DNA of 64,000 nt from Microbacteriaceae bacterium (lineage in GTDB: Bacteria; Actinomycetota; Actinomycetes; Actinomycetales; Microbacteriaceae): contig JAIXWK010000002.1 in assembly GCA_027491295.1 (NCBI GenBank), positions 58,032 through 122,031 on the forward strand. The letters are read 5' to 3'. Made by a program: the position numbers and the translations under genes. The notes beneath the pieces were generated by a model, which searched no databases, was not told where the DNA came from, and saw nothing but the letters and a program-made list of their open reading frames with translations. Below, piece after piece: positions 4,353 through 64,000 of this stretch (position 1 is the stretch's first letter; the number at the start of each line of letters is the position of its first letter).

Positions 4353-4505
4353 GATAGGAATGTCCATGCAAGTAGTGGATAATTATTTTCTCAGGGCAGA
4401 GAAGGGGTCTGGGTGGGTAATCGCAGTGGTGCGCGCCTGACTCAGGCTCGAAAGAAAAGTCCGACTCTCTTTCCAAAACAAATAACAGCGAAGGATACTT
4501 TGTAG

Positions 4506-6134
4506 ATGCCAAACGCAAAAAAGACTGCAACGCCAGCCAAAGAGTATGACCTGGTCGTCATCGGAGCCGGCATCAACGGCCTTGGCATCGCTAAAGATGC
4601 CGCTGAGCGCGGTATGTCAGTTGTGCTGGTTGAGCAAGAGGACATTTGCTTTGGAGTATCGGCCTGGTCTGGACGCCTAATTCACGGCGGGCTTCGCTAC
4701 TTGGAACACATGGATCTGCCACTGGTTCGCGAATCACTCAAGGAGCGCGAGCGACTATTCAAGCTGGCTCCTCACCTGGTAAAGCCAGTCGATTTGATCA
4801 TGCCCTTCTACAAGAAAAATCGCAGGCCGGCTTGGATGATTTGGGCTGGCATGATGGCCTACGACTTCCTCTCTATAGATAAGACCGTTCCGTGGCACCG
4901 AATCCTGGGCAAAGCCAAAGTGAAGGATCGCTTCAAAGGTATGTCTGACTCAGGACTCGGCGGAGCAGCTGTGTTTATTGACGGCCAGGTTGAGTATGCC
5001 GAGCGCCTCTGCGTCGAACTCGCACTCGGTGCCAGTGAGCTAGGCGGCGAGATAAGAATCCACGAGAAGGTTGTGGGATTTGAATTCAGCAACGGCCGGG
5101 TGGTTGGAGTCCAGACCCTCAACTCCGAAGGTAAGACTTCGTCAATCAAGGCTAAAGCTGTAATCAATGCCGCTGGGCCATGGGTTGACCGCGTCAACGA
5201 CAACCTCAAGCAGGGAAACACCAAGCGGCTGATCGGAGGCACAAAGGGAAGCCACATTATTGTTGACCCTTTCCCAGGTGCACCAAATGACGTGATCTAC
5301 TACGAATCCCAGGCTGACGGCAGACTGGTTTTGGTTATTCCTTGGATGGGTCGTTACTTGATCGGCACCACCGACACCAAATTTGACCTTGAACCGGATG
5401 CCGCCCGCGCAGACCAAACCGAAATCGAGTATCTACTGCGCGAAGTGAATGCACTGATTCCAGAGTCTGGTCTAACCCAAAAAGACATCCTCTACACCTA
5501 CAGCGGAGTTCGTCCGCTACCATACGCTCCTGGAGTTTCGGAGTGGAAGATCCCTAGAAGCCACATCGTTCTGGACCACACCAGCGACTCGCTACCTGGT
5601 CTTTACTCGGTGGTCGGCGGGAAGCTAACCACCTTCCGTCAACTCGCGGAGGATGCGGTGACCCTGGTTTTGAAGAAAGAATTTGGTGAGCGTCGTGCCT
5701 GCGTGAACAAGCAGAAGATGTTCCCTGGAGCTCAAGACACAGACTGGTCTGCATTGAAAGCAGAGCTGGTCGCTGGAGGGGCCATAAAGCCAGATACCGC
5801 CGAGCGCTTGGTCGCGCTCTATGGATGCAGGGCTCGACTGGTTGCAAGTTACGTGAAAAAAGATTCAAAATTGGCGGAGCGTTTTGACCCTAGATCACCG
5901 GCAATTGCTGCTGAGCTAGTGGTAGCGACCCAAGACGAATTTGCCCAAACCCTGACCGACATCTACGCCAGAAGAATTCTGCTGGCATTCGAACCGGGAC
6001 ACGGGCTCGAGTCGGTCAAAAGAGCGAGCGAGATTGTCGGCAAGCTAAATGGTTGGGACAAAAAGTTAGTTGCGCAGAACATCAAGGAATATCAGGTGTG
6101 GCTAGATCACCTGAAGGTTCCTAAGGTGGCCTAA
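4506..6134 (+). CDS. glpD: FAD-dependent glycerol-3-phosphate/polyol-phosphate dehydrogenase (GlpD/EryB family), copy 1
   Basis: Motifs GAGING, SGRLIHGGLRYLE, KGSHI, IGTTD, YSGVRPL and GGKLTTFR. Confidence 0.85.
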   Translation: MPNAKKTATPAKEYDLVVIGAGINGLGIAKDAAERGMSVVLVEQEDICFGVSAWSGRLIHGGLRYLEHMDLPLVRESLKERERLFKLAPHLVKPVDLIMPFYKKNRRPAWMIWAGMMAYDFLSIDKTVPWHRILGKAKVKDRFKGMSDSGLGGAAVFIDGQVEYAERLCVELALGASELGGEIRIHEKVVGFEFSNGRVVGVQTLNSEGKTSSIKAKAVINAAGPWVDRVNDNLKQGNTKRLIGGTKGSHIIVDPFPGAPNDVIYYESQADGRLVLVIPWMGRYLIGTTDTKFDLEPDAARADQTEIEYLLREVNALIPESGLTQKDILYTYSGVRPLPYAPGVSEWKIPRSHIVLDHTSDSLPGLYSVVGGKLTTFRQLAEDAVTLVLKKEFGERRACVNKQKMFPGAQDTDWSALKAELVAGGAIKPDTAERLVALYGCRARLVASYVKKDSKLAERFDPRSPAIAAELVVATQDEFAQTLTDIYARRILLAFEPGHGLESVKRASEIVGKLNGWDKKLVAQNIKEYQVWLDHLKVPKVA

Positions 6135-49208: not shown

Positions 49209-50657
49209 ATGTCAGACAAAGCAAATATTGGCGTCGTTGGTCTCGCCGTAATGGGCTCGAACCTAGCCCGCAACTTGGCATCGCGCGAAGGCAATAGAGT
49301 TGCCATCTACAACCGTTCTGTTGAGCGCACCGACCTATTGGTGAGCGAGCACCCAGAGGCCAACTTCATTCCAAGCGAAACCATCGATGAATTCGTGGCT
49401 TCGCTTGCAAAACCACGCACCGCGATCATCATGGTTCAGGCAGGTGCCGGCACCGACGCTGTAATCAGCCAGTTGGCCGAGAGATTCGAATCAGGCGACA
49501 TCATCGTTGACGGTGGTAACGCACTTTTCACCGACACCCTTCGTCGCGAAAAGGATGTCAGCGCCAAGGGCATTCACTTTGTTGGTGCTGGAATCTCCGG
49601 TGGTGAAGAAGGTGCCCTAAAAGGTCCATCGATCATGCCTGGTGGAACCGCTGAGGCTTATAAGACCCTCGGTCCAATCCTTTCCTCAATCGCCGCTATT
49701 GCCGAGGGTGAGCCGTGTGTTACCCACGTTGGCACCGATGGCGCGGGTCACTTTGTAAAGATGATTCACAACGGCATCGAATATGCCGACATGCAACTAA
49801 TCGCTGAGGCATACGACATTCTTCGCCAGGCTGGCGGCTTCTCCCCAAGTGAGATCTCTGACATCTTCATCGAGTGGAACAAAGGCGAGCTAGAGAGCTA
49901 CCTGATTGAGATCACCGCAGAGGTGCTCAAGCAGATTGACGCCAAGACCGGTAAGCCATTCGTAGATGTGGTTTTGGATGCAGCCGGCTCAAAGGGCACC
50001 GGAGTCTGGACCGTTCAGACCGCGCTGAACCTTGGCACTCCAGTGTCTGGAATTGCCGAGGCAGTGTTTGCAAGAAGCCTCTCCTCGCAGTCCAGCCAGC
50101 GCGCAGGAAATGCCGGCATGGCCAGCCACACCACCACTTGGTCAGTAAGCGATAAGGCAGCCTTTGTTGAGGATGTTCGTAAGGCTCTCTACGCATCCAA
50201 GATCATTGCCTACGCCCAGGGCTTTGACGCGATTCGCGCCGGAGCTGCGGAGTACAAGTGGAAAATCAACCTGGGTGCTGTCTCAAAGATCTGGCGTGGT
50301 GGTTGCATCATTCGTGCACAGTTCCTAAACCGCATTGCAGATGCCTACGGCAAGAACGAAAACCTACTTAGCCTTTTGTTTGATGACTACTTCGCCAAGG
50401 CAATCGATTCATCGCTCGCATCCTGGAGAAACGTGGTTGCTCACAGTTCGCTAGCCGGTATTCCAAACCCAGCCTTCTCATCTTCTTTGAGCTACTACGA
50501 CGGCCTGCGCGCAAAGCGCTTGCCGGCGGCACTGGTTCAGGGACAGCGCGACTTCTTTGGTGCTCACACCTACAAGCGCGTTGACCGCGATGGTGTCTTC
50601 CACACCCTTTGGTCGGCGGATCGCTCGGAGATCGAAACCACACCTTCTAGCCACTAG
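49209..50657 (+). CDS. gnd: 6-phosphogluconate dehydrogenase (NADP+, decarboxylating)
   Basis: Motifs GLAVMG.NLA.N, VDGGN, GISGGEEGA, KMIHNGIEY, WRGGCIIRA and QRDFFGAHTY. Confidence 0.97.
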   Translation: MSDKANIGVVGLAVMGSNLARNLASREGNRVAIYNRSVERTDLLVSEHPEANFIPSETIDEFVASLAKPRTAIIMVQAGAGTDAVISQLAERFESGDIIVDGGNALFTDTLRREKDVSAKGIHFVGAGISGGEEGALKGPSIMPGGTAEAYKTLGPILSSIAAIAEGEPCVTHVGTDGAGHFVKMIHNGIEYADMQLIAEAYDILRQAGGFSPSEISDIFIEWNKGELESYLIEITAEVLKQIDAKTGKPFVDVVLDAAGSKGTGVWTVQTALNLGTPVSGIAEAVFARSLSSQSSQRAGNAGMASHTTTWSVSDKAAFVEDVRKALYASKIIAYAQGFDAIRAGAAEYKWKINLGAVSKIWRGGCIIRAQFLNRIADAYGKNENLLSLLFDDYFAKAIDSSLASWRNVVAHSSLAGIPNPAFSSSLSYYDGLRAKRLPAALVQGQRDFFGAHTYKRVDRDGVFHTLWSADRSEIETTPSSH

Positions 50658-50667
50658 ATTTCATTAG

Positions 50668-51543
50668 GTGAAATCACACTGGATTTGGAAGTTTCTTCCA
50701 ATGGCCCTGATCTGGGGCTCCAGTTTCCTATTCACCGAACTCTCACTTAGATTCCTACCTTTTTACGGTGTCGCCTTTTGGCGCACGTTCCTTGGTGGCG
50801 CGGCAATGTTTGGCTTGGTGTTTTTACTCAAGCTTCAGCTACCAAAGGGAACCCAGTGGTTCCACCTCTGGGTAGCCGGTGTCTTGATGTCGGCAATACC
50901 GTTTGCACTGTTTAGCTTCGCGCAGCAATCGACCACTTCCTCGCTGGCGGCAATCATTGGTGCCACTACCCCAATTTTCACACTGCTTGCAATCTTGACT
51001 ATCTACCGAACCGAGAAGGTGACGATTATCGCCACTATTGGTTTGGCGGTTGGGCTAATCGGTGTCGCGATCACCCTCGGGATTTGGGAAGGCTTTGGCC
51101 AAAACGACCCGCTTGCAATTGGAGCACTGGTTTTGGCAACCATTTCCTATGGCATCGGTGGGCCATATATCCGCAAGTATGTAACCCCGATGAATCTCTC
51201 GGGGACTTCTTCGGCGGCAGCCCAGGTATTCACGAGCGCCATCACGCTGTTGCCGTTTTACCTATTTACGGGACCACTTTTCACGGGGCCTCCAAGCATG
51301 GAATCACTTTTGGCGCTTCTGGCCCTGGGGGTTTTGGGCTCTGGCTTTGCCTACCGACTATTTCACGATGTCGTCAAAGCGGCTGGATCTACCGTTGCGC
51401 TAACCGTCACCTTCACCAATCCGGTGTTGGCAACCATCTGGGGCATTTTGCTATTGGGTGAAGAGCTGCACTGGTATGAACCAATTGGTGGTGCGGTAGT
51501 AATACTGGGAGCCTGGCTAGCTCAAAACAAGAGCTCTAAATAG
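50668..51543 (+). CDS. DMT/EamA family transporter
   Basis: ALIWGSSF motif and about 10 TM segments arranged as two repeats. Confidence 0.85.
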   Translation: MKSHWIWKFLPMALIWGSSFLFTELSLRFLPFYGVAFWRTFLGGAAMFGLVFLLKLQLPKGTQWFHLWVAGVLMSAIPFALFSFAQQSTTSSLAAIIGATTPIFTLLAILTIYRTEKVTIIATIGLAVGLIGVAITLGIWEGFGQNDPLAIGALVLATISYGIGGPYIRKYVTPMNLSGTSSAAAQVFTSAITLLPFYLFTGPLFTGPPSMESLLALLALGVLGSGFAYRLFHDVVKAAGSTVALTVTFTNPVLATIWGILLLGEELHWYEPIGGAVVILGAWLAQNKSSK

Positions 51544-52426
51544 TGGTTGCGTAACCGCGCCAAACCACAGTTGGTTTGAAGCCCTGATTTTCGTAAAGCT
51601 GCAATGCTCCGGACTCATTGCCGGTGTCCACACCGAGCCCGACAGACTGGTAACCCTTCTCGGCGGCGTGAGCGACTCCCCACTGCAGCAATAACTTTCC
51701 GAGCCCTAAGCCGCGGAACTTCTCCAGCACACCGAGTTTGTCCACCCAGCCGCCATTCATCTCTGACCGAGCGTCATTGGAGATCAAAAGACCAGCCGGT
51801 TCACCTTTTACCTTGGCAATAAATACGCCTTTGCGATCCAGCTTAGGTTCGGTGGTTTTCTCTGCGAGCCAATCATCGTGGCCAAGTGGAATGTAACCGA
51901 AGTGACCGGAGAAAGATTCGCTCTCAAGCATGTGTAGCGTGCGTGACTCACCCTCCAGGTCAACCGCCTCAATGGTGATGTCCTTTGGGAGCTGGGGGAA
52001 GCCCTGCTCAACTGGCTCTTTGACCATCTTGTAGTAGTCACGCAGAAAGCTCAGGCCGCTCTCCTCAAACAGCGCAAGCAGCTCGGTGTCCATCTTGTTG
52101 CAAAAGGTTCTAACGTCAAAGCCCTTGCGGTTTTGCGCTAGCCACTCAAAGCCGGCATCAAATAGCTCTTTGGACTGCGCCTTAGTGCCAACGGTAAAAA
52201 AGTCTGGGTCAACGCGGTTTCTTGGAGTCGAGGTTTGGATGAACATCACTGCTTTGATTCCGCCGTCATCCAAGACCATGGTGTGGGAAGGCTCTTCGTA
52301 GCCATTTAGAAATTCGGTGATTTCACTAAGTGGCATCAGTTCAAAGTCTGGGTCAACGCGTAGTTCGTGGTTATTGCAAACCAAAAGCAGTTCTTGAGCG
52401 TCATCAAGGGTTGCGACTCTAATCAT
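51536..52426 (-). CDS. GNAT family N-acetyltransferase
   Basis: C-terminal GVL..FRGLGLGK.LL motif and A..LYE..GF. Confidence 0.85.
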   Translation of the reverse strand: MIRVATLDDAQELLLVCNNHELRVDPDFELMPLSEITEFLNGYEEPSHTMVLDDGGIKAVMFIQTSTPRNRVDPDFFTVGTKAQSKELFDAGFEWLAQNRKGFDVRTFCNKMDTELLALFEESGLSFLRDYYKMVKEPVEQGFPQLPKDITIEAVDLEGESRTLHMLESESFSGHFGYIPLGHDDWLAEKTTEPKLDRKGVFIAKVKGEPAGLLISNDARSEMNGGWVDKLGVLEKFRGLGLGKLLLQWGVAHAAEKGYQSVGLGVDTGNESGALQLYENQGFKPTVVWRGYATTI

Positions 52427-52832
52427 TGGTAGCTGCTGTCCTTAGATTTTCGATGGTCCAGGGCCGAACCTCAAAAAATAATAATCGCGAACAAATTGCC
52501 AAACAAGGCAAAGATCTATAGCCGGATCTCGCTATCCGAGCAGGAAAAGGCAGTTTTCGCGACGGTTAGTCGAGCTTCTTGCCCCTGCAAGCTGAAATCC
52601 GGTTGGCCGAGATCGATTTTCTATGACTTATTTGCTAACGATTTGTTAATAAATGTCGGTGTGTTGAGGTCAAATTGGCTGTAAAAACCCCTGTTTCTAC
52701 AGCCCGTAAAAATAACTTTTCAGCACATTAGATGAACAACCCGCGACACGCGGGATTTGCTACCGCCTTAAAGTTCAACCTGTGGGTTAATGTTCATGAA
52801 ATAACTAAATAAGTGAAAAAAATCGCGAGTTG

Positions 52833-52848
52833 CTACTACATCTAGTGG
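52833..52848. promoter_or_regulatory. Candidate NrdR box upstream of nrdH
   Basis: CTACTACATCTAGTGG is near-palindromic and fits acaCwAtATaTwGtg. No clear second box at the usual spacing. Confidence 0.6.
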
Positions 52849-52944
52849 TTAAGTGCTAATGTTGTAAATCCACAGTTTGCGAGATTTTTCACAAAAATTT
52901 GCTAAAACCGGGCCTAAAAACCCACTTACCCAGGAGGAACACCA

Positions 52945-53169
52945 ATGGCGGTGACCGTTTACACGCTCCCAGCTTGCGTGCAGTGCGACAGCACTAAGCG
53001 CATGTTGCAGCGCAACCAGATTGAGTATGCCGAGGTCGACATGTCTCAGGACCCAGTAGCTCTAGAAATGGTCAAGACCTTGGGTTACACCGCCGCACCA
53101 GTAGTTGTCTCTGGAGACGAGCACTGGAGCGGTTTCCGCATGGACAAAATCCAAGCAATCTCAGCGTAG
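52945..53169 (+). CDS. nrdH: Glutaredoxin-like NrdH
   Basis: Motifs CVQC and APVV...HWSGFR.D.I. Confidence 0.95.
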
Positions 53170-53171
53170 AA

Positions 53172-53572
53172 ATGGTGAAGGAGATGTTCGATGTTGTTTA
53201 TTTCTCGAGCGTCTCAGAAAACACCAAACGGTTCGTAGACAAACTCGGTGCCAACGCCATCCGGATTCCACTGAAATCTGAAGAAGCAGCCGACTTTGTT
53301 CACGATCGGGACAGCGTCCTAGTAGTTCCCACCTACGGTGGCGGCAACGATGAATCAACTGTTCCAAAACAAGTAATCAAATTCTTGAATAATCCGGTAA
53401 ATCGGAAACATATCAAGGCGGTTATTGCCGGGGGAAACACCAATTTTGGTGCCCACTTCTGCAAGGCCGGCGACATAGTCGCCAGCAAACTCGGGGTTCC
53501 AGTGCTGTATCGGTTCGAGATCACTGGCACCCCAGAAGACGTAACGGAAGTAAAAGAAAGGCTGGCCGAACT

Positions 53573-53588
<16 letters not shown>
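53172..53588 (+). CDS. nrdI: Flavodoxin-like NrdI
   Basis: Motifs YFSS.SENT.RFV, PTYGGG, GNTNFG and FE..GT. Confidence 0.95.
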
Positions 53589-56730
<3,142 letters not shown>

Positions 56731-56739
56731 GAGATATTC

Positions 56740-56790
56740 ATGGACTGCAATTGCGGTAAAGACACTTGTGGCTGCGGCGGCAAGCACTAA
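56740..56790 (+). CDS. 16-aa Cys-rich peptide, metallothionein-like or leader peptide, not in the ORF track
   Basis: SD TAGGAG overlapping the nrdF stop, ATG at 56740; reads MDCNCGKDTCGCGGKH then TAA. Confidence 0.55.
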   Translation: MDCNCGKDTCGCGGKH

Positions 56791-56808
56791 ATAAAGCATT
56801 AGCAAAGG

Positions 56809-56840
56809 AACCGGCCGGTTTGTAATTGGCCAGTTTTTTT
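56809..56840 (+). terminator. Intrinsic terminator between the Cys-rich peptide and zupT
   Basis: AACCGGCC (56809-56816) pairs with GGCCAGTT (56828-56835) with one mismatch, followed by a T run. Confidence 0.6.
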
Positions 56841-56860
56841 GACCCAATAAGGAGGTGACT

Positions 56861-57682
56861 GTGGAAAGCGGATTCATTCTGGCGTTCCTGGTCACTCTCG
56901 GAGCCGGTCTTGCAACCGGAATTGGCTCGACGCTCGCCTTTTTCACCAAAACCACCAACAAGTCTTTCTTCGCCATCGCAATGGGCTTCTCTGCCGGTGT
57001 GATGGTCTATCTCTCCTTTGTTGAGATCATCCCCAAGTCCACCAAATACATCGCGGAGACAATTCCTGCGGTGCAGGCTTCGGCGGTTGCCGCAATCGCC
57101 ATGGTTGGCGGCATGATCGTGATGGCTATCATCGATGCGCTGGTTCCATCCGGTGCAAACCCGCACGAAAACACCGAGATTGAGCTGTTGGGCAGCGAGC
57201 AGGAACGATCTGAGGCCAGGGCGAACAAGGTCTTGCTCCGCACCGGGCTATTTGTTGCCCTAGCGATTGCGATTCACAACTTCCCAGAGGGTCTTGCGAC
57301 CTTCCTGCTGGTATTGGATGACCCGCAAATCGGTATCGCCTTGGCAATTGCTGTTGCGCTGCACAACATTCCAGAAGGAATTGCAGTCTCTGTGCCGGTC
57401 TATTACGCCACAAAGTCCAAGGTCAAGGCATTCCGCCTGAGCTTCCTCTCCGGCCTTGCAGAGCCGGCTGGAGCCGTTATTGGCTACCTTCTCCTTGCCC
57501 AGTTCCTAGATCACTTTGTTTTGGGCATCCTTTTTGCCATGGTTGCCGGAGTAATGGTCTTTTTGGCGATCGATACGCTTTTGCCAACCGCACGAAACTC
57601 AGCTCGTGGTCACCTCAGTGTCTATGGGTTTATTGCAGGTGTTGCGGTCATGGCCGCAAGCCTGGTTCTGCTTCGGCTTTAG
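56861..57682 (+). CDS. zupT: ZIP family metal transporter (ZupT/GufA)
   Basis: Motifs GFSAGVM.Y.SF.EI, AIAIHNFPEG, A.ALHNIPEG and SGLAEP.G. SD AGGAGG before GTG 56861. Confidence 0.95.
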   Translation: MESGFILAFLVTLGAGLATGIGSTLAFFTKTTNKSFFAIAMGFSAGVMVYLSFVEIIPKSTKYIAETIPAVQASAVAAIAMVGGMIVMAIIDALVPSGANPHENTEIELLGSEQERSEARANKVLLRTGLFVALAIAIHNFPEGLATFLLVLDDPQIGIALAIAVALHNIPEGIAVSVPVYYATKSKVKAFRLSFLSGLAEPAGAVIGYLLLAQFLDHFVLGILFAMVAGVMVFLAIDTLLPTARNSARGHLSVYGFIAGVAVMAASLVLLRL

Positions 57683-60600
57683 ATAATCCCGGTCAGATTC
57701 AGGGTTACCAGCAGCATCGCTACGCCACCGATTCGGTAAACCCAACGGTTGCGCTTGCCCGGTCTTAGCTCATCCGGAGTTGCACCCTCACGGCCAAACA
57801 TCGACAGGATGCTCAGCAATAGCAGTGGTAGGGGTATCAGCACGAAGCTCAGCTCCGCGTAGGCCGGGGTTGCACCCAGCCAGATGGCCAATAGCGCCGA
57901 GGTGCTCGAGGCAACCAAGATGGTGAAGGCAAGGCCTGGAACACCGGTGGGCAAGATTCTCCAGATCAGCGGCACGTTAGGGAATTTGTCCTGGTACCAG
58001 CCGATGACGGTGGGAAGTAGGAACAGTGCGGATCCAACAAAGGCCTGCCATCCAAAGCCAACAATTGCACCCGAAAGTACCACCCAGATACCGTAGCGAA
58101 TCAATAGGGCAACGGCCTTCTGCACCAGCGGTGAATCAGGCAGCTCGGTTGGGTTGATCTTGTTCAGACGAGCTGGGAAGTAGCGAGCGGAACCCTCCTC
58201 GAGCAACACGCGCAAAGCAGCCGCAATAGCAATCGCGAGACCGAACTCGGTGACGTGGTTGGCCATATTCAGCGTCAAACCAGAGATTGCCGGCATAACC
58301 GAAACCATGGTCATAACTGACCAGCCGGCCATAAATGGCGCAATCGCTAGGTCAGCCAATCTCTCCCACCAGGAATCCAGGTCTCGAGCAGGTTCCTTGC
58401 GGAGCGTGCGGAACGCTGTGGCAAGCATTGCCGGACCGATCGCGATGATCATTACACCCATTAGGGTCCTGATCTGGCTTAGGTCAGGAAGCTGCCCTGC
58501 GGCAATGATCGAACCAACCAAGAACACCAAGGTTGCTGCAAAGCCGGCAAATGCATCAAAGAGCCCCAGAACCGCAATCGCAAGCATTAGGTACCAGGTA
58601 GGGGCGAATACCTCACCACCGTTTTGGATTACAGCGGTCAGAGCCAGTCCAACACCTGCGATAGGCAGTAGCAAGGTGGTTGATCCGAGAATCGCACGCA
58701 GGTAAGCACCATCGTTGACAACCTTGGACAACAGCGGTGAAACAGGCGCTAGCAGCAGCGCTAGATCATGGGTGAACCTATCGAGGAAGGTAAGCCACCT
58801 GGATTTGAACCAGCGGAGCCTGTCTCCCCAGTTCTCATCGATAAGTTCAATTTGATCGTGAGCAACCTCAAGCTCGGCAAGGTCTTCGTCGTTCTGTTCA
58901 GACTCTGAGCTCGAAGATCCTGAACTTGACGACGAGCTGCTTGCTGCAGCGGCTCCTGCGGCCGCAGCTGCGGCGGCAGCCATTGCACCAACCAACAGAC
59001 CAATGGTCGCGAGAATGGCTTCTGGCGAGCCAAGTGGGTCATATTGTTCAATGACCGCGTCATCGCCACCGGAAGGCTCTGGGCTTGGTTCTGGGCTTGG
59101 AGCTTCCGTCGCCTCAGGCAAAGGCGAAGCCGTAGGCCCCACGATTACCTCTGAACCACTGGCTGGCTCCTCAGCCGGCTCTGATGGACCTGGTTCCGGA
59201 TCGGTGCTCTGCGAAGGCTCAGGAGCTGGCGGCGTCGGCTTCACGGTCGGGGTAGGCGTGACAGTCGGAGTTGGGGTCGGGGTTGGGGTCGGGGTTGGTG
59301 AAACCGTCGGCGAAACCGTCGGAGGCACGGTAGGAGTAACTGGATCTGGGGTAACAGTAACGGCCAGCGAAGGAGGAGCTGGCGGGGTGTAACTTGCCAC
59401 AGCTGCAACACCGAGTCCTAGTGCGTTTCTTGCCTTGACGCTTACGTTGTATGTGACGCCAGGACTTACCGTTCCAACCTCGCACATTCTGACCTGGATG
59501 TTGGCACAAATCGTTTGACCATTGACCTGAACGTTGTAGTCCTCGATGGCGAAACCACCATCCGAGTTTGGAGCACCCCAGCTCACGATGATCTTTGATT
59601 CATCCTGGGTATCAAGTGACAGCTGGGTCGGGGCAGCAGGAGCCGATAGACCGACCTTGACACCGTTTGCGGTGTTGATGGTCTGAGAGGACGAGTAGGT
59701 GTCGGTGATGGTTACAACCTTCATGGTGTAACCAACGGTCGCGCTCTCGGTGGCAGCGTTCTGCTGCACCGAAGCAAGTGAGACAAAGCCCATAGGCCTG
59801 TGCTGCATGGTGCCAAATACAAAGACCTTGCTGTTCGTGCGGTAGTAGGAGCTGACAACATTCAGCTGAGGCTGAACGAATACCGCTGGTGCAATGGTCG
59901 GGCTCGACGAAGCAATCTGGGTTATCGCCATCGAGATTGTCGACGAGGTCGAGTTGGTGATCGTTGAGGTCGGTGTTGCGGGCTGCTGGGTGCCGGTAAC
60001 CCAAACGTAAACCTCGTAGCGCAAGAAGTTACCATCGATGGCAACCGGTGCAGCCCAGGTCATATCCAATCCACCAGTGGATACGTTCGCACTGAGCTGC
60101 GTAACGCTCATCTCGGCACGAGATGGGGTTAGCGGAATGGTTACCGTGGAGTACTGACCAATGCCTGCGTTAGTAATTGGTGCAATCCTTGCGGTGTAGG
60201 CACGACCGTTTGGAATACCCGCGATGGTACAGACCAGCGGAACTGTTGTGGTACAGGCCGAGTTCACATACTTGTTGTTGTTCACATCGGTCACTTCGAG
60301 GCGGTAACGCTGAACCGCGCTGCCACCCAGGTAAGAAGGTGCTGTGTAACCAAGGGTGAACCACTGGTTACCTACCGCTGCCGACACCAACGAAGGAGAA
60401 CCGGCCAGGTCTGGCTCAACAAAGAACAGGCGCGATACATCTGGTGCCGGAGCCCATGAGCCATTACCGGCCTGGGATGCCACAATCAGACACTTACCTT
60501 CTGCGACCAGTGTCACAATGCCGTTCTGGGTCACCGTACAGGCGGTGATACCAGCAGAGATGGTGTAGCTGACGTCAAGCCCAGAGCTTGCCTGAGCACC

Positions 60601-63600
60601 AAGGCGCCAAGAAGGTGATCCGTAGGTCTTGTCGCTCAGCATCTCGAAGTTGATGGTCTGGTTCTGACGTCCAATTTCAAAGCGTTGAGACGCGGTGTTG
60701 GCCGCGTATACGTTGTTACCCGCCTGGGTCGCAGTTACCTCACAGTAGCCACTGCGTAGGAACAAGACCTGGCCGGAGACCGAGGACGACATGGTACAGA
60801 CCGCAGGCGAGTAGCTCACGTTGCTACTTGCTTGAATCTCCTGGCCCAAGGCAATGGTGTAGCTGATGCTTAGGCCGCTAGATGCGGTTGCTACCGCCTG
60901 GTAGGTCTGACCTGCAAGCGGCATCAAAGGAAGCGCACTTGTGAAGCTGACCTGCTGAATCTGCTTGGAGAAGCTGAAGGTGATTGCCGGGCTGGTTGCC
61001 AGGTTGTAGTTCACATCCTGAACCTTCTGCGCGCTAACCTCACAGGCACCATTGCGGGCAGCGCGAAGGGTGGTTCCAATTAGCGAACACTGCGCGGTGC
61101 CGTTGTCGGTGATGGTGTAGCTAACGGTTCCAGTTCCAGAACCACCAACAGTGAAGAGCTCAATGTCTCCAACTGCGGTAGCGCGAGAGTTACCAATCTC
61201 AAGTGGCTGCTGGGCAATTCTCAGCACTGTGACGTCCATCATCTCTGAGACCACCTGCAGGTGGTTGGCATCGCCGGAGCGGGCGGCAAAGATCGTACAG
61301 GTTGGACTTAGGTCCTCGGTGGCATTGCCCTGGAACGCAAGCGAGGTTCCGATGGTGCGGCAGTCACCGGTGGCGAAGAACCTGGTGGTCGCGGTTCCGC
61401 TACCACCGGTTGCGCTAAGCGGCAGTACCTGACCGAAGTCGACGTAGTCAACGTTGGTAATGGTCAGCGGAGCCTGTGGCGACTTGGCGATAACCAAGGT
61501 GATGTCCTTGGTGTTGGACTTGAAGTAGATGCCATCGGCAACGCTTGCGCGAACCACACAGTTTCCAGCACCAATTACCGTCACTACACCAGAGCTACTG
61601 TTCACCGAACAGAGGCTCGGAGTGGTTACTACGAAGCTAATGCTGTGCTCGGTTGAGTCGGTGTACAAAATTGCTGGGCTGACAGTCTTACTTGCACTGT
61701 AAACAACCGGCGAGTAGCTCAGGTTGATCTCGGCGGTCTTGAACACTGAGAAGCTTGTGGTGTCAGCCAGTGAGAAGCCGCCGGAGGCTGCGAAGTTCAA
61801 CGTGTAGTTCACACCAGGTGAACCGGTAGCCGCTAGACCTGCGAACTGCACCTCACCATTTACCGCGGTAGCGGTGTTAGATCCGCTAACCGCTCCACCG
61901 CTACCAGATCCAATGGTTGCGGTAACAACGGTTGCGCTGTCGTAGATGGTCCTATTTCCAAAGCGGTCGAATAGGAACAGCTTTGGCTGGGTAGCTAGCG
62001 CGGCACCCTGGCGACCACCCTGAACATACGGCGACTGAGCAACCATGTAAGAGGCAGTGGTGTGCGAGACAACCAGGTTCGTCGCGGTAGTAATCGCAAA
62101 CGAACCGGATGCAGTGGTTGCGGTGAAGGTCAACTGCTGCGATACCGAAGGTGTTGCAACCAGGGTCAGACCGCTAAAGGTCACGACACCGTTGACGGCT
62201 TGCGAGCTGGTTCCAGCCTCGATGTAGCCGCCACCGATCGATACCGAGGCCACGATGGTTGCAGAGGTAGAGGTTGCGATGTTGCCGTCGAAGTCCAATA
62301 GGCGAAGCACCGGCTGTGTGGCCATAACTTCACCAGTGCGCTGTGCGATCGGCTGTGTAATCCACTGAAGAGTTGCGGCAGCTGCCGGTGATACCTGAAT
62401 TGCGCTGGAGTTCACGCTGAAGCTACCTGCGCTAAAGCCAAGTACATAGTTGCGGTTTGTGGCACCTGTGAAGGTCAGGTTGGTAAAGGTTGCGATGCCG
62501 CCGACAACTGTGACGGTTGTGGTTCCACCGACCAAAGCACTCGCACCACCCGGACGGTTAGGTCCTGATACCAGTGCAACGGTCACCTGAGTTGAGTTGT
62601 CGGTGGTGACAACGTTCCCAAAGCGGTCCAGCAACCTAGCTACCGGCTGAACACTTAGAGCCTCTGCAGTTACGCCGCCAACCGGCTGGGTCTGCATCAC
62701 GATCGAGGAAGGAGCAGCCGGTGAAATGCTGATGTTGTTGGAGCTGGTTCCGGTGAGTCCCGCACTTGCAAACTGCAGGTTGTAGGTGGTGGTTGGCGAT
62801 CCCTCGATGCGGAGCGAGTTGTAGGTACCGATACCGTTTACAACCAGTGCGCTAACAGACGCAATAGTTGCATCCTGACCGCTGACCAGTCGACCACCGC
62901 TACCAGCAATGGTCACATCAATGCTTCCCACGTAGTTGGTAACGAGGTTGCCGTAGCGGTCCTCAACTCGAACCATTGGCTGGGCGCCCAATAGCTCTGC
63001 CGCAACAGCAAGGCTGCTTGGCTGCTGTGAGATCCGCAGCTTGGTTGGGTCGGCGAAGGTGAGACTCAAGTTCTGCGAGTTAGGCGAGACAACCGCAGCC
63101 GAAGCCGAGTTCACTGCACCTAGCAAGGTGAAGCGAAGCTGCTGGTTTTCTCCAGGAGGAGCTACCAGGGTTAGGTTCTGGAAGTCGGCAATACCGTTTA
63201 TAACACTTGCCAAGCCATTCGACTCGATAGAGCCGCTACCAACAACTACCGAAGCGCTAATGGTCACGTTGGTCAACGAGGTGGTTCGGTTGCCGTCGAA
63301 GTCGTAAACCACAATCGTTGGCGACTGAACAAGCGGGTCACCGGTCTTGTTGCCTGCAACAGGAGAGGTCGAGATTGCCAGGTACTCAGCATCGGCGTGG
63401 GTTACCTGCAGGTTGACCTCAGCGGTGTGCTGGTTAGAGCCGAAAGTAAAGTTCAGGCGGTAAATCTGACTTGGGTCAACCACCAGCGCAAGGTTCGAGA
63501 AGGTAGCAACACCGGCGGTTGCCGATACCGTGAAGTTCTTTAGGTAGTCCCGGTTACCTCGAGGCGTGAGGTTTAAGGTAGCGGTTACCACATCTGAGGA

Positions 63601-64000
63601 ATCCAGCACTCGGTTACCGGCGGCATCCTGAATCTCAATTACCGGCTGCACCTTGAGCGCCTCACCGGTCTTCGAGCGAACCTGGTTGGAGTCGGTCGAA
63701 GAAGGCAGACGCAAGAAGCCAATCTTGTTGGAAATACCGTGGGTAATGGTGATGTTGCTCTGAACCGCTGGGGTCACACCACCGGCTTGACGGTAGAAGT
63801 TGATCTCATAGGTGTTGCCAACTAGTCCCGAGATACCCATCTGGAAGGTGTAGACACCTGCGGTGTTGCGAACACCCTGGTTGTTGTTCACGTTCGCAGC
63901 ACTGCCCGAACCACTTTGAACCTGAGGGTTACCAATAATGGTGACCGCTGGGTCCTTGAAGACTCGGTTGCCAAAGCGGTCTAGCAATACCACCTGAGGC
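57679..64000 (-). CDS. Giant cell-surface protein, 3' part (more than 2100 aa; continues beyond the right edge): Ig-like repeats, FN3 domains, Pro/Thr stalk and a multi-pass C-terminal membrane domain
   Basis: At least seven repeats sharing D(R/F/A)xGN, most preceded by QP; several Q..I.F-type beta repeats; FN3-like segments (W.AP..DGG..I..Y.V); a PT/PE linker; about 9-10 C-terminal hydrophobic segments. The frame stays open to 64000. Confidence 0.85.
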   Translation of the reverse strand, partial: PQVVLLDRFGNRVFKDPAVTIIGNPQVQSGSGSAANVNNNQGVRNTAGVYTFQMGISGLVGNTYEINFYRQAGGVTPAVQSNITITHGISNKIGFLRLPSSTDSNQVRSKTGEALKVQPVIEIQDAAGNRVLDSSDVVTATLNLTPRGNRDYLKNFTVSATAGVATFSNLALVVDPSQIYRLNFTFGSNQHTAEVNLQVTHADAEYLAISTSPVAGNKTGDPLVQSPTIVVYDFDGNRTTSLTNVTISASVVVGSGSIESNGLASVINGIADFQNLTLVAPPGENQQLRFTLLGAVNSASAAVVSPNSQNLSLTFADPTKLRISQQPSSLAVAAELLGAQPMVRVEDRYGNLVTNYVGSIDVTIAGSGGRLVSGQDATIASVSALVVNGIGTYNSLRIEGSPTTTYNLQFASAGLTGTSSNNISISPAAPSSIVMQTQPVGGVTAEALSVQPVARLLDRFGNVVTTDNSTQVTVALVSGPNRPGGASALVGGTTTVTVVGGIATFTNLTFTGATNRNYVLGFSAGSFSVNSSAIQVSPAAAATLQWITQPIAQRTGEVMATQPVLRLLDFDGNIATSTSATIVASVSIGGGYIEAGTSSQAVNGVVTFSGLTLVATPSVSQQLTFTATTASGSFAITTATNLVVSHTTASYMVAQSPYVQGGRQGAALATQPKLFLFDRFGNRTIYDSATVVTATIGSGSGGAVSGSNTATAVNGEVQFAGLAATGSPGVNYTLNFAASGGFSLADTTSFSVFKTAEINLSYSPVVYSASKTVSPAILYTDSTEHSISFVVTTPSLCSVNSSSGVVTVIGAGNCVVRASVADGIYFKSNTKDITLVIAKSPQAPLTITNVDYVDFGQVLPLSATGGSGTATTRFFATGDCRTIGTSLAFQGNATEDLSPTCTIFAARSGDANHLQVVSEMMDVTVLRIAQQPLEIGNSRATAVGDIELFTVGGSGTGTVSYTITDNGTAQCSLIGTTLRAARNGACEVSAQKVQDVNYNLATSPAITFSFSKQIQQVSFTSALPLMPLAGQTYQAVATASSGLSISYTIALGQEIQASSNVSYSPAVCTMSSSVSGQVLFLRSGYCEVTATQAGNNVYAANTASQRFEIGRQNQTINFEMLSDKTYGSPSWRLGAQASSGLDVSYTISAGITACTVTQNGIVTLVAEGKCLIVASQAGNGSWAPAPDVSRLFFVEPDLAGSPSLVSAAVGNQWFTLGYTAPSYLGGSAVQRYRLEVTDVNNNKYVNSACTTTVPLVCTIAGIPNGRAYTARIAPITNAGIGQYSTVTIPLTPSRAEMSVTQLSANVSTGGLDMTWAAPVAIDGNFLRYEVYVWVTGTQQPATPTSTITNSTSSTISMAITQIASSSPTIAPAVFVQPQLNVVSSYYRTNSKVFVFGTMQHRPMGFVSLASVQQNAATESATVGYTMKVVTITDTYSSSQTINTANGVKVGLSAPAAPTQLSLDTQDESKIIVSWGAPNSDGGFAIEDYNVQVNGQTICANIQVRMCEVGTVSPGVTYNVSVKARNALGLGVAAVASYTPPAPPSLAVTVTPDPVTPTVPPTVSPTVSPTPTPTPTPTPTVTPTPTVKPTPPAPEPSQSTDPEPGPSEPAEEPASGSEVIVGPTASPLPEATEAPSPEPSPEPSGGDDAVIEQYDPLGSPEAILATIGLLVGAMAAAAAAAAGAAAASSSSSSSGSSSSESEQNDEDLAELEVAHDQIELIDENWGDRLRWFKSRWLTFLDRFTHDLALLLAPVSPLLSKVVNDGAYLRAILGSTTLLLPIAGVGLALTAVIQNGGEVFAPTWYLMLAIAVLGLFDAFAGFAATLVFLVGSIIAAGQLPDLSQIRTLMGVMIIAIGPAMLATAFRTLRKEPARDLDSWWERLADLAIAPFMAGWSVMTMVSVMPAISGLTLNMANHVTEFGLAIAIAAALRVLLEEGSARYFPARLNKINPTELPDSPLVQKAVALLIRYGIWVVLSGAIVGFGWQAFVGSALFLLPTVIGWYQDKFPNVPLIWRILPTGVPGLAFTILVASSTSALLAIWLGATPAYAELSFVLIPLPLLLLSILSMFGREGATPDELRPGKRNRWVYRIGGVAMLLVTLNLTGII
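59060..59390 (-). repeat. Low-complexity Pro/Thr/Ser/Glu linker (PTPTPTPT, PSPEPSPEP) inside the giant protein
   Basis: Short degenerate tandem repeats (GGGGTCGGGGTT, GAAACCGTCGG) that translate to PT/PS/PE runs. Confidence 0.85.

Follow-up and report, generated by a model that had tools for sequence, protein, structure and literature searches.

A 16-codon open reading frame (sORF), situated directly downstream of nrdF, is a genuine protein-coding gene which, judging by its pattern of substitutions, has been selected at the amino acid level. In genome-streamlined aquatic Microbacteriaceae it occupies the fifth and final position of the nrdH-nrdI-nrdE-nrdF operon, the operon of class Ib ribonucleotide reductase (RNR). 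The small peptide that it encodes probably binds metal or has a redox role, rather than controlling the neighboring metal transporter.

The sORF was considered in the window, a stretch of 64,000 nt of DNA from a Microbacteriaceae genome (Table 1). All the elements described by the initial annotation were found in the sequence: a Shine-Dalgarno site (SD) overlapping the nrdF stop ahead of the ATG, a 16-residue ORF with two CxC pairs (four Cys), a hairpin with a U tract and then zupT with its own SD. The terminal His, mentioned in the same description, is present in the window peptide, MDCNCGKDTCGCGGKH; it is not conserved, as some variants end in N or S. The nrdF gene ends with TTC TAG (stop codon at 56728-56730), the GGAG core of the sORF SD occupies 56730-56733, and a spacer of 6 nt leads to the ATG. 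In a population variant close to the window, an A>G change at 56734 restores the GGAGG form of the SD. The sORF itself reads ATG GAC TGC AAT TGC GGT AAA GAC ACT TGT GGC TGC GGC GGC AAG CAC TAA. In its extended form the terminator hairpin spans 56803-56841, and it starts 13-22 nt past the sORF stop. Close relatives of NrdF carry the source annotation ‘class 1b ribonucleoside-diphosphate reductase subunit beta’.

Table 1. Features of the nrd operon and of the adjacent zupT gene, in window coordinates
Feature	Position	Strand	Basis or comment
nrdH, glutaredoxin-like, first gene of the operon	52945..53169	+	ORF; PF00462
nrdI, flavodoxin-like	53172..53588	+	ORF; PF07972
nrdE, class Ib RNR large subunit, 725-aa ORF	53573..55750	+	homologues in relatives with PF08343/PF00317/PF02867
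nrdF, class Ib RNR small subunit	55768..56730	+	PF00268 at 4.6e-95
Shine-Dalgarno site of the sORF, AGGAGA	56729..56734	+	overlaps/abuts the nrdF stop; GGAGG in most relatives
sORF, 16-aa peptide, last cistron of the nrd operon	56740..56790	+	stop TAA 56788-56790
Intrinsic terminator of the nrd operon	56803..56840	+	hairpin core 56813-56831, T7 56834-56840
Shine-Dalgarno site of zupT, AGGAGG	56850..56855	+	sequence
zupT-like gene, ZIP-family divalent-metal importer	56861..57682	+	PF02535; GTG start aligns with ATG of relatives

Upstream of nrdH, at 52830-52900, we saw AT-rich imperfect repeats (ACATCTAGTGG, CCACAGTTTGCGAG and TTTTTCACAAAAATTT), which might be NrdR boxes or boxes of a metal regulator. 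At the other end of the region, a 2104-aa ORF (57679-63993, minus strand) is convergent to zupT, the stop codons of the two overlapping by 4 nt. It contains fibronectin type III repeats (PF00041), a Pro/Thr-rich linker and a long hydrophobic C-terminal region; the product is probably a giant surface protein. Two minus-strand ORFs overlapping the sORF region (56626-56976 and 56738-57166) were treated as mechanical, since conservation does not extend past the sORF stop, relatives differing from one another beyond it.

Retrieval of loci from species-representative genomes, anchored on NrdF, placed the window among Aquiluna-type freshwater Microbacteriaceae: the NrdF identity to the window was 99% for locus L001 and 85-92% for named Aquiluna MAGs and isolates. 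The 15 closest species representatives had an NrdF identity of at least 81%; one locus (L017) ends inside nrdF and was left out, thus 14 could be read past this gene. Six of the 14 carried the sORF (L001, L004, L007, L008, L009 and L011), one of them being an isolate, Aquiluna sp. Uisw_065 (L008). The sORF is dispensable, being absent from the other 8 of the 14. Among ∼64 more distant actinobacteria, with loci anchored on NrdF as well, it was found in none. Two of the loci lacking the sORF, L002 and L003, have NrdF 98% identical to that of the window; they retain the terminator and zupT and, in the region past nrdF (about 4963-5050), show no remnant of the sORF, which suggests either a clean loss of the sORF or a recombination at the 3′-end of nrdF. 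In a by-eye comparison, ZupT of these two loci looks considerably more diverged from the window than NrdF.

We made a blind scan of all ORFs of 8-45 aa in six frames of 80 NrdF-anchored loci and of the window. Only seven of these ORFs had the CxC..CxC arrangement, and each was located directly after nrdF; this restriction to a single location argues that the sORF is more than a chance occurrence. A context-free scan, in which a degenerate DNA pattern for the peptide was run against metagenome contigs with no reference to nrdF, produced 57 matching loci: (i) 47 loci of the nrdF-linked family, which follow a ...DW(D/N)F-stop and an SD (GGAGG) and end right after KH; (ii) eight loci of an ORF from AT-rich marine contigs; (iii) two apparently chance matches. 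A peptide gene of this family located away from nrdF was found neither in the blind ORF scan nor in the context-free metagenome scan.

Sampling of NrdF protein clusters and of contigs added more divergent versions of the peptide: MDCNCSKDSCGCGTKN, MGCACGKDSCNCGGS, MGCACGKDSCNCGAS and MGCNCGKDSCGCGGSH. The whole collection contains 77 instances of the sORF, representing 31 distinct DNA sequences and 17 peptide variants, all directly 3′ of nrdF; the set obtained independently of the pattern is small (11 NrdF-anchored species or protein clusters with the sORF; 12 unique sequence contexts). The carriers are Aquiluna-like Microbacteriaceae genomes and metagenomes (aquatic actinobacteria). Existing gene calls on the metagenome, MAG and NCBI contigs that we examined, L152 included, omit the sORF.

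The marine matches of the context-free scan belong to a second family of tiny ORFs, unrelated to the nrdF-linked one. These ORFs of AT-rich marine contigs have 21 aa with 9 Cys and occur in L119 (10854-10919, plus strand) as well as in L081, L086, L104, L106, L112, L117 and L130. Four variants of MDCNC[TS][QE]C[SN]C[QN]K[AT]C[EN]C[AN]CC[ED]C were seen, with Cys positions conserved; there is no SD. The neighbors in L119, judged by eye from translations, look like glutamine synthetase, Na/Ca exchanger and pirin. The peptide is absent from a collection of 15 billion proteins and has no family match in Pfam or NCBIfam; it looks like an unannotated mini-metallothionein.

Returning to the nrdF-linked sORF, in the alignment of the 17 peptide variants the only invariant residues are Met1 and the four Cys (CxC-x3/4-CxC). 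The core is M-x-C-x-C-(x3-4)-C-x-C; K7 is nearly invariant, while D/E8, S/T9 and G13 are strongly preferred. Most instances were found by the pattern scan, which required MDCNC, Cys and KH, thus invariance in this subset is partly by construction, and the claim of invariance rests on the NrdF-anchored subset.

At the DNA level, synonymous variation is present at nearly every codon of the sORF (GAC/GAT, AAT/AAC, TGC/TGT, four Gly codons), Ser9 is encoded by AGC, TCA or TCT, and amino acid changes are conservative where the substitutions are not synonymous. Three length variants differ by whole codons, the indels being in-frame only. The Cys codons are conserved in the presence of synonymous, coding-type substitutions, a pattern that the initial annotation had proposed to look for in related genomes. 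The pN/pS ratio (Nei-Gojobori) was 0.22 for pooled sequences, 0.19 for the 16-codon sequences and 0.32 for the NrdF-anchored subset; for the last 16 codons of nrdF it was 0.03. Mean pairwise identity was 0.87-0.90 in the last 51 nt of nrdF, 0.82 in the sORF and 0.40-0.43 in the 13 nt past its stop. The SD of the sORF is retained despite variation in its sequence (GGAGG or GAAAGGAA) and spacing.

Two other sources of such conservation were considered and rejected. Read-through or frameshifting out of nrdF does not account for the sORF, since its frame relative to nrdF varies, all three frames being occupied across loci. RNA structure is not the cause either: RNAalifold produced a weak helix inside the sORF, but this helix is a product of the repeated UGC codons, with virtually no compensatory substitutions.

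One could also propose that the act of translation alone matters (for example, ribosomes stabilizing the 3′-end of the nrd mRNA or protecting it from Rho), with the peptide having no function. In agreement with this, the ORF is very short and not always retained, and the mRNA whose 3′-end it occupies is highly expressed. Still, we consider it quite unlikely in view of the constraint on amino acids (pN/pS of 0.2-0.3, the invariant Cys, Ser maintained across AGC and TCN codons, in-frame indels). Moreover, in relatives lacking the sORF a terminator of this kind follows the end of nrdF by 18-25 nt with no problem.

The initial annotation had also suggested co-expression of the peptide with the class Ib RNR, and two observations bear this out. 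Firstly, in every instance the SD of the sORF is located on the nrdF stop or behind it, so that ribosomes finishing nrdF can re-initiate at the sORF; from this geometry of SD and stop codon we infer translational coupling of the sORF to nrdF. Secondly, RNA contigs from separate metatranscriptomes join the 3′-end of nrdF and the entire sORF. In freshwater metatranscriptome assemblies nrdF is present at high word depth. An RNA contig of X23 (depth 393) covers 56671-56793 with a synonymous GAC>GAT change as well as the A>G change giving the GGAGG SD, a 1074-nt RNA contig of X30 ends at 56794, and one of X27 reaches 56855. Past the terminator the depth of RNA contigs is some 10- to 100-fold lower, and it is low for zupT; contig depth is a rough measure of expression, with DNA carry-over possible in RNA contigs. 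These data agree with a picture in which the nrd mRNA is abundant, the sORF is its 3′ cistron and the terminator that follows is leaky.

The terminator, a GC-rich stem-loop followed by a T run, is present with both hairpin and T run after every sORF instance. The distance from the sORF stop to the hairpin is 10-22 nt across instances (mode 13 nt), which is the ordinary geometry for the last gene before a terminator. Compensatory changes were observed at six pairs of the terminator stem, the only place where RNAalifold detected covariation. Terminator-like sites are not enriched as a class over 6.5 kb; the site after the sORF is the best one. A scan for sigma-70 promoters found none between nrdF and zupT, and since only about 20 nt separate the T tract from the zupT SD, there is no room for a zupT promoter past the terminator. 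An Rfam scan of 50000-60000 (E-values up to 1) gave no match, which indicates that there is no riboswitch or known leader in this region.

The gene located after the terminator could be considered in 54 instances. It was a ZIP gene in 30 of the 54 and an Nramp gene in 5; in 15 it was neither, and 4 instances were cut by the contig end. In the 15 instances the terminator is followed either by a convergent gene of S13 D-Ala-D-Ala carboxypeptidase or by an MFS gene and then that peptidase gene; here zupT is 1.4-2.7 kb away and has its own upstream region. The order sORF-terminator-Nramp was seen in L008, L102, L116, L125 and L126. As for loci lacking the sORF, three (L002, L003 and L006) keep the nrdF-terminator-zupT layout and five (L005, L012, L014, L015 and L173) have Nramp directly after nrdF with no terminator. 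The ZIP gene of the window is a neighbor of the sORF, and the sORF does not depend on zupT.

The slot after nrdF thus alternates between ZIP and Nramp divalent-metal importers in the Aquiluna-like clade, suggesting a genomic tie between the class Ib RNR operon and metal supply, probably that of Mn. In one lineage bearing the sORF (L138-L141) a heliorhodopsin gene (PF18761) is located directly after zupT (about 4498-5301, minus strand).

According to the second proposal of the initial annotation, the sORF would be a leader or sensor ORF for zupT. Ribosomes stalled at the Cys codons, or on a nascent chain with bound metal, would then control read-through into zupT (or mntH). Several facts speak for it: the sORF is positioned just upstream of the terminator, the next gene is mostly an importer with too little space behind the terminator for a separate promoter, the RNA contigs suggest a low level of terminator read-through, and Cys-codon sORF attenuators exist in mycobacteria (10.1101/834739). 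The weight of the evidence is on the other side. The sORF is linked to nrdF and not to zupT, given the 15 of 54 instances where the peptidase or MFS gene comes next and the three loci which have the same layout with no sORF in it. Pairing of the sORF with the 5′ arm of the terminator was no better than that of dinucleotide-shuffled sORFs (mean z +0.2 over 48 loci), the best such pairing averaging -7.9 kcal/mol, compared with -16.4 kcal/mol in the terminator hairpin. Neither the 48 loci nor RNAalifold showed an alternative pairing of the sORF that would act as antiterminator or sequester a ribosome binding site. With 10-22 nt from stop to stem, the stem core stays outside the footprint of a ribosome that terminates on the sORF. 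No two Cys codons are adjacent, CC being absent from every variant, and residues other than Cys (K7, D8, S/T9, G13) are conserved as well. A role of the sORF as leader peptide of zupT is therefore not supported, and we regard it as very unlikely.

The mycobacterial polycysteine sORFs are, according to Canestrari et al. (10.1101/834739), leaderless first cistrons with consecutive Cys codons, where stalled ribosomes open an RNA duplex hiding the RBS of the next gene, and they control Cys metabolism. The nrdF-linked sORF resembles them in being actinobacterial, unannotated, very short, Cys-containing and located upstream of other genes. It differs in having an SD and in being the last cistron, preceded by four nrd genes and followed by the terminator; its Cys pairs are CxC, never CC, and its downstream neighbors vary and are unrelated to Cys metabolism. 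None of the features expected from such an attenuator (a leaderless first cistron, a run of Cys codons, switching RNA pairing, a constant downstream gene) was observed for it.

What would the peptide do, then? The product is predicted to be a free cytosolic hydrophilic peptide of 15-16 residues with four thiolates, which could bind a metal ion of the soft or borderline type, with Zn(II), Cu(I), Cd(II) and possibly Fe(II) or Co(II) as candidates. One ion per peptide might be held as a tetrathiolate, or small clusters might form between peptides. Such a product would be a Cys4 thiolate micropeptide. Counting any such role, we give the peptide an about even chance of being a metal buffer, and the form that we prefer is a metallothionein-like sink aiding the metallation of NrdF.

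The preferred model would work as follows. The peptide would be made in step with NrdF, usually beside a broad-specificity divalent-metal importer (ZIP or Nramp); NrdF-coupled synthesis and the neighboring importer led us to propose it as a local sink for tight-binding thiophilic metals. A Cys4 peptide would bind Zn, Cu or Cd and not Mn, as thiolates are poor ligands of Mn. The sink would keep Zn, Cu and Cd off nascent NrdF, and the weakly binding Mn(II) (or Fe(II)) could then reach the NrdF site, which would make the peptide a metallothionein-like gatekeeper of metalation for class Ib RNR. A ZIP protein can import Mn (PMC8844249), and metals that bind more tightly have to be avoided in correct metalation, following Irving-Williams logic (PMC10087151). 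The part of the model concerning the importer is weakened by retention of the sORF in the 15 of 54 instances where no metal importer adjoins.

The term ‘ultra-minimal metallothionein’, used in the initial annotation, is plausible as far as composition and CxC motifs can tell, metal binding being predicted. The window peptide is 25% Cys with two CxC motifs and no aromatic residue. In the family, Cys makes up 25-27% of the 15-16 residues, against about 15-30% Cys with few or no aromatics in metallothioneins, and Phe, Tyr and Trp are absent from all 17 variants. The CxC-x3/4-CxC motif is invariant in the 31 unique DNAs, NrdF-anchored ones included. Other similarities to metallothioneins are the abundance of Gly/Ser/Asn/Lys, the metal-related neighborhood and the small size, probably with no structure in the metal-free form.

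On the other hand, there are only four Cys, which allow at most a mononuclear tetrathiolate per peptide and no multi-metal cluster within a single peptide; to our knowledge, every accepted metallothionein has far more than four Cys. The shortest accepted ones known are the fungal Cu-metallothioneins of about 25 aa, e.g. that of Neurospora crassa; bacterial metallothioneins suitable for comparison are SmtA/BmtA and the mycobacterial MymT. BLASTP against the N. crassa protein (with a sequence not taken from a database) gave only 4/6 compositional matches. There was no match to a Pfam or NCBIfam family at E-values up to 10 (queries with padded or duplicated peptide) and no relative in PDB at E-values up to 10 (family-profile search). 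Also, in difference from a stand-alone metal-induced gene, the peptide is encoded by the last coupled cistron of an RNR operon. Thus, the peptide may work like a metallothionein, and we do not claim that it is a member of the metallothionein family.

Among small proteins of manganese homeostasis one could mention E. coli MntS (42 aa), which is induced together with MntH (PMC4361602). Both MntS and, as proposed, the nrdF-linked peptide are functionally tied to supply of Mn, on which NrdF also depends; they differ in size and composition, and the MntS gene is separate and controlled by MntR, whereas the peptide is nrd-embedded and Cys-based.

The main rival to the metal-sink reading is a redox or Fe-S helper, which would maintain the redox state or the cofactor of RNR with a CxC dithiol couple, a rubredoxin-like Fe(Cys)4 or a small Fe-S centre. 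By analogy, such a helper would pass electrons to NrdI, NrdF or NrdE as a minimal counterpart of YfaE. In the E. coli nrdAB-yfaE operon, YfaE, a [2Fe-2S] ferredoxin of 84 aa that serves the class Ia NrdB, is encoded directly after nrdB. The position of the sORF mirrors that arrangement: a gene of a small protein with Cys ligands (predicted ones in the case of the sORF) immediately follows the gene of the RNR beta subunit in the same operon. The strict linkage and coupling to nrdF, whatever gene comes next, and the four invariant Cys at fixed spacing are in favor of the redox role as well; retention of the sORF where no importer is adjacent fits a role intrinsic to RNR better than an importer-linked one.

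Nevertheless, we consider a redox helper unlikely. The peptide has 16 residues and is linked to class Ib RNR, where NrdI already activates and where NrdH and NrdI of the same operon supply the known redox functions. Searches of Pfam, NCBIfam and PDB revealed no homology to ferredoxin or rubredoxin; of the features of YfaE, a protein with the 2Fe-2S ferredoxin fold, only gene position is shared. The CxC spacing is not known as a usual one for ligands of Fe-S or rubredoxin centres, and close relatives do without the gene.

A precursor of a modified or exported peptide (a RiPP or metallophore) could likewise be short and Cys-rich, and in one lineage (L108) the next gene codes for an MFS_3 ‘secretion effector’. 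This origin appears extremely improbable: no modifying enzyme or dedicated exporter is conserved beside the sORF in any context, its only constant neighbor being nrdF, and there is no leader/core architecture in 15-16 residues.

Neither the peptide strings nor Cys-rich small proteins linked to nrdF turned up in a literature search; the strict coupling of a Cys-rich micropeptide to the class Ib RNR operon is unprecedented. We tentatively propose, while regarding it as rather unlikely, that the peptide is a hitherto undescribed fifth component of the class Ib RNR system, gating the metal of NrdF or maintaining its cofactor. If true, it would be the shortest known metallothionein-like protein and among the shortest bacterial genes with a non-regulatory product.

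A conserved gene of 16 codons, maintained by selection, is thus added to an operon studied for decades. The carriers, ultramicrobacteria with streamlined genomes, abound in fresh and coastal waters, and a retained gene of 51 nt is unlikely to be idle in them. As the gene is carried by an isolate, Aquiluna sp. Uisw_065, experiments are feasible, and since the peptide is accessible by chemical synthesis, the chemistry that matters most can be examined directly. Metal binding by the peptide, if confirmed, would push the size limit of metallothionein-like proteins downward and would provide a simple natural model for shielding a weak-binding Mn site from tighter-binding metals.
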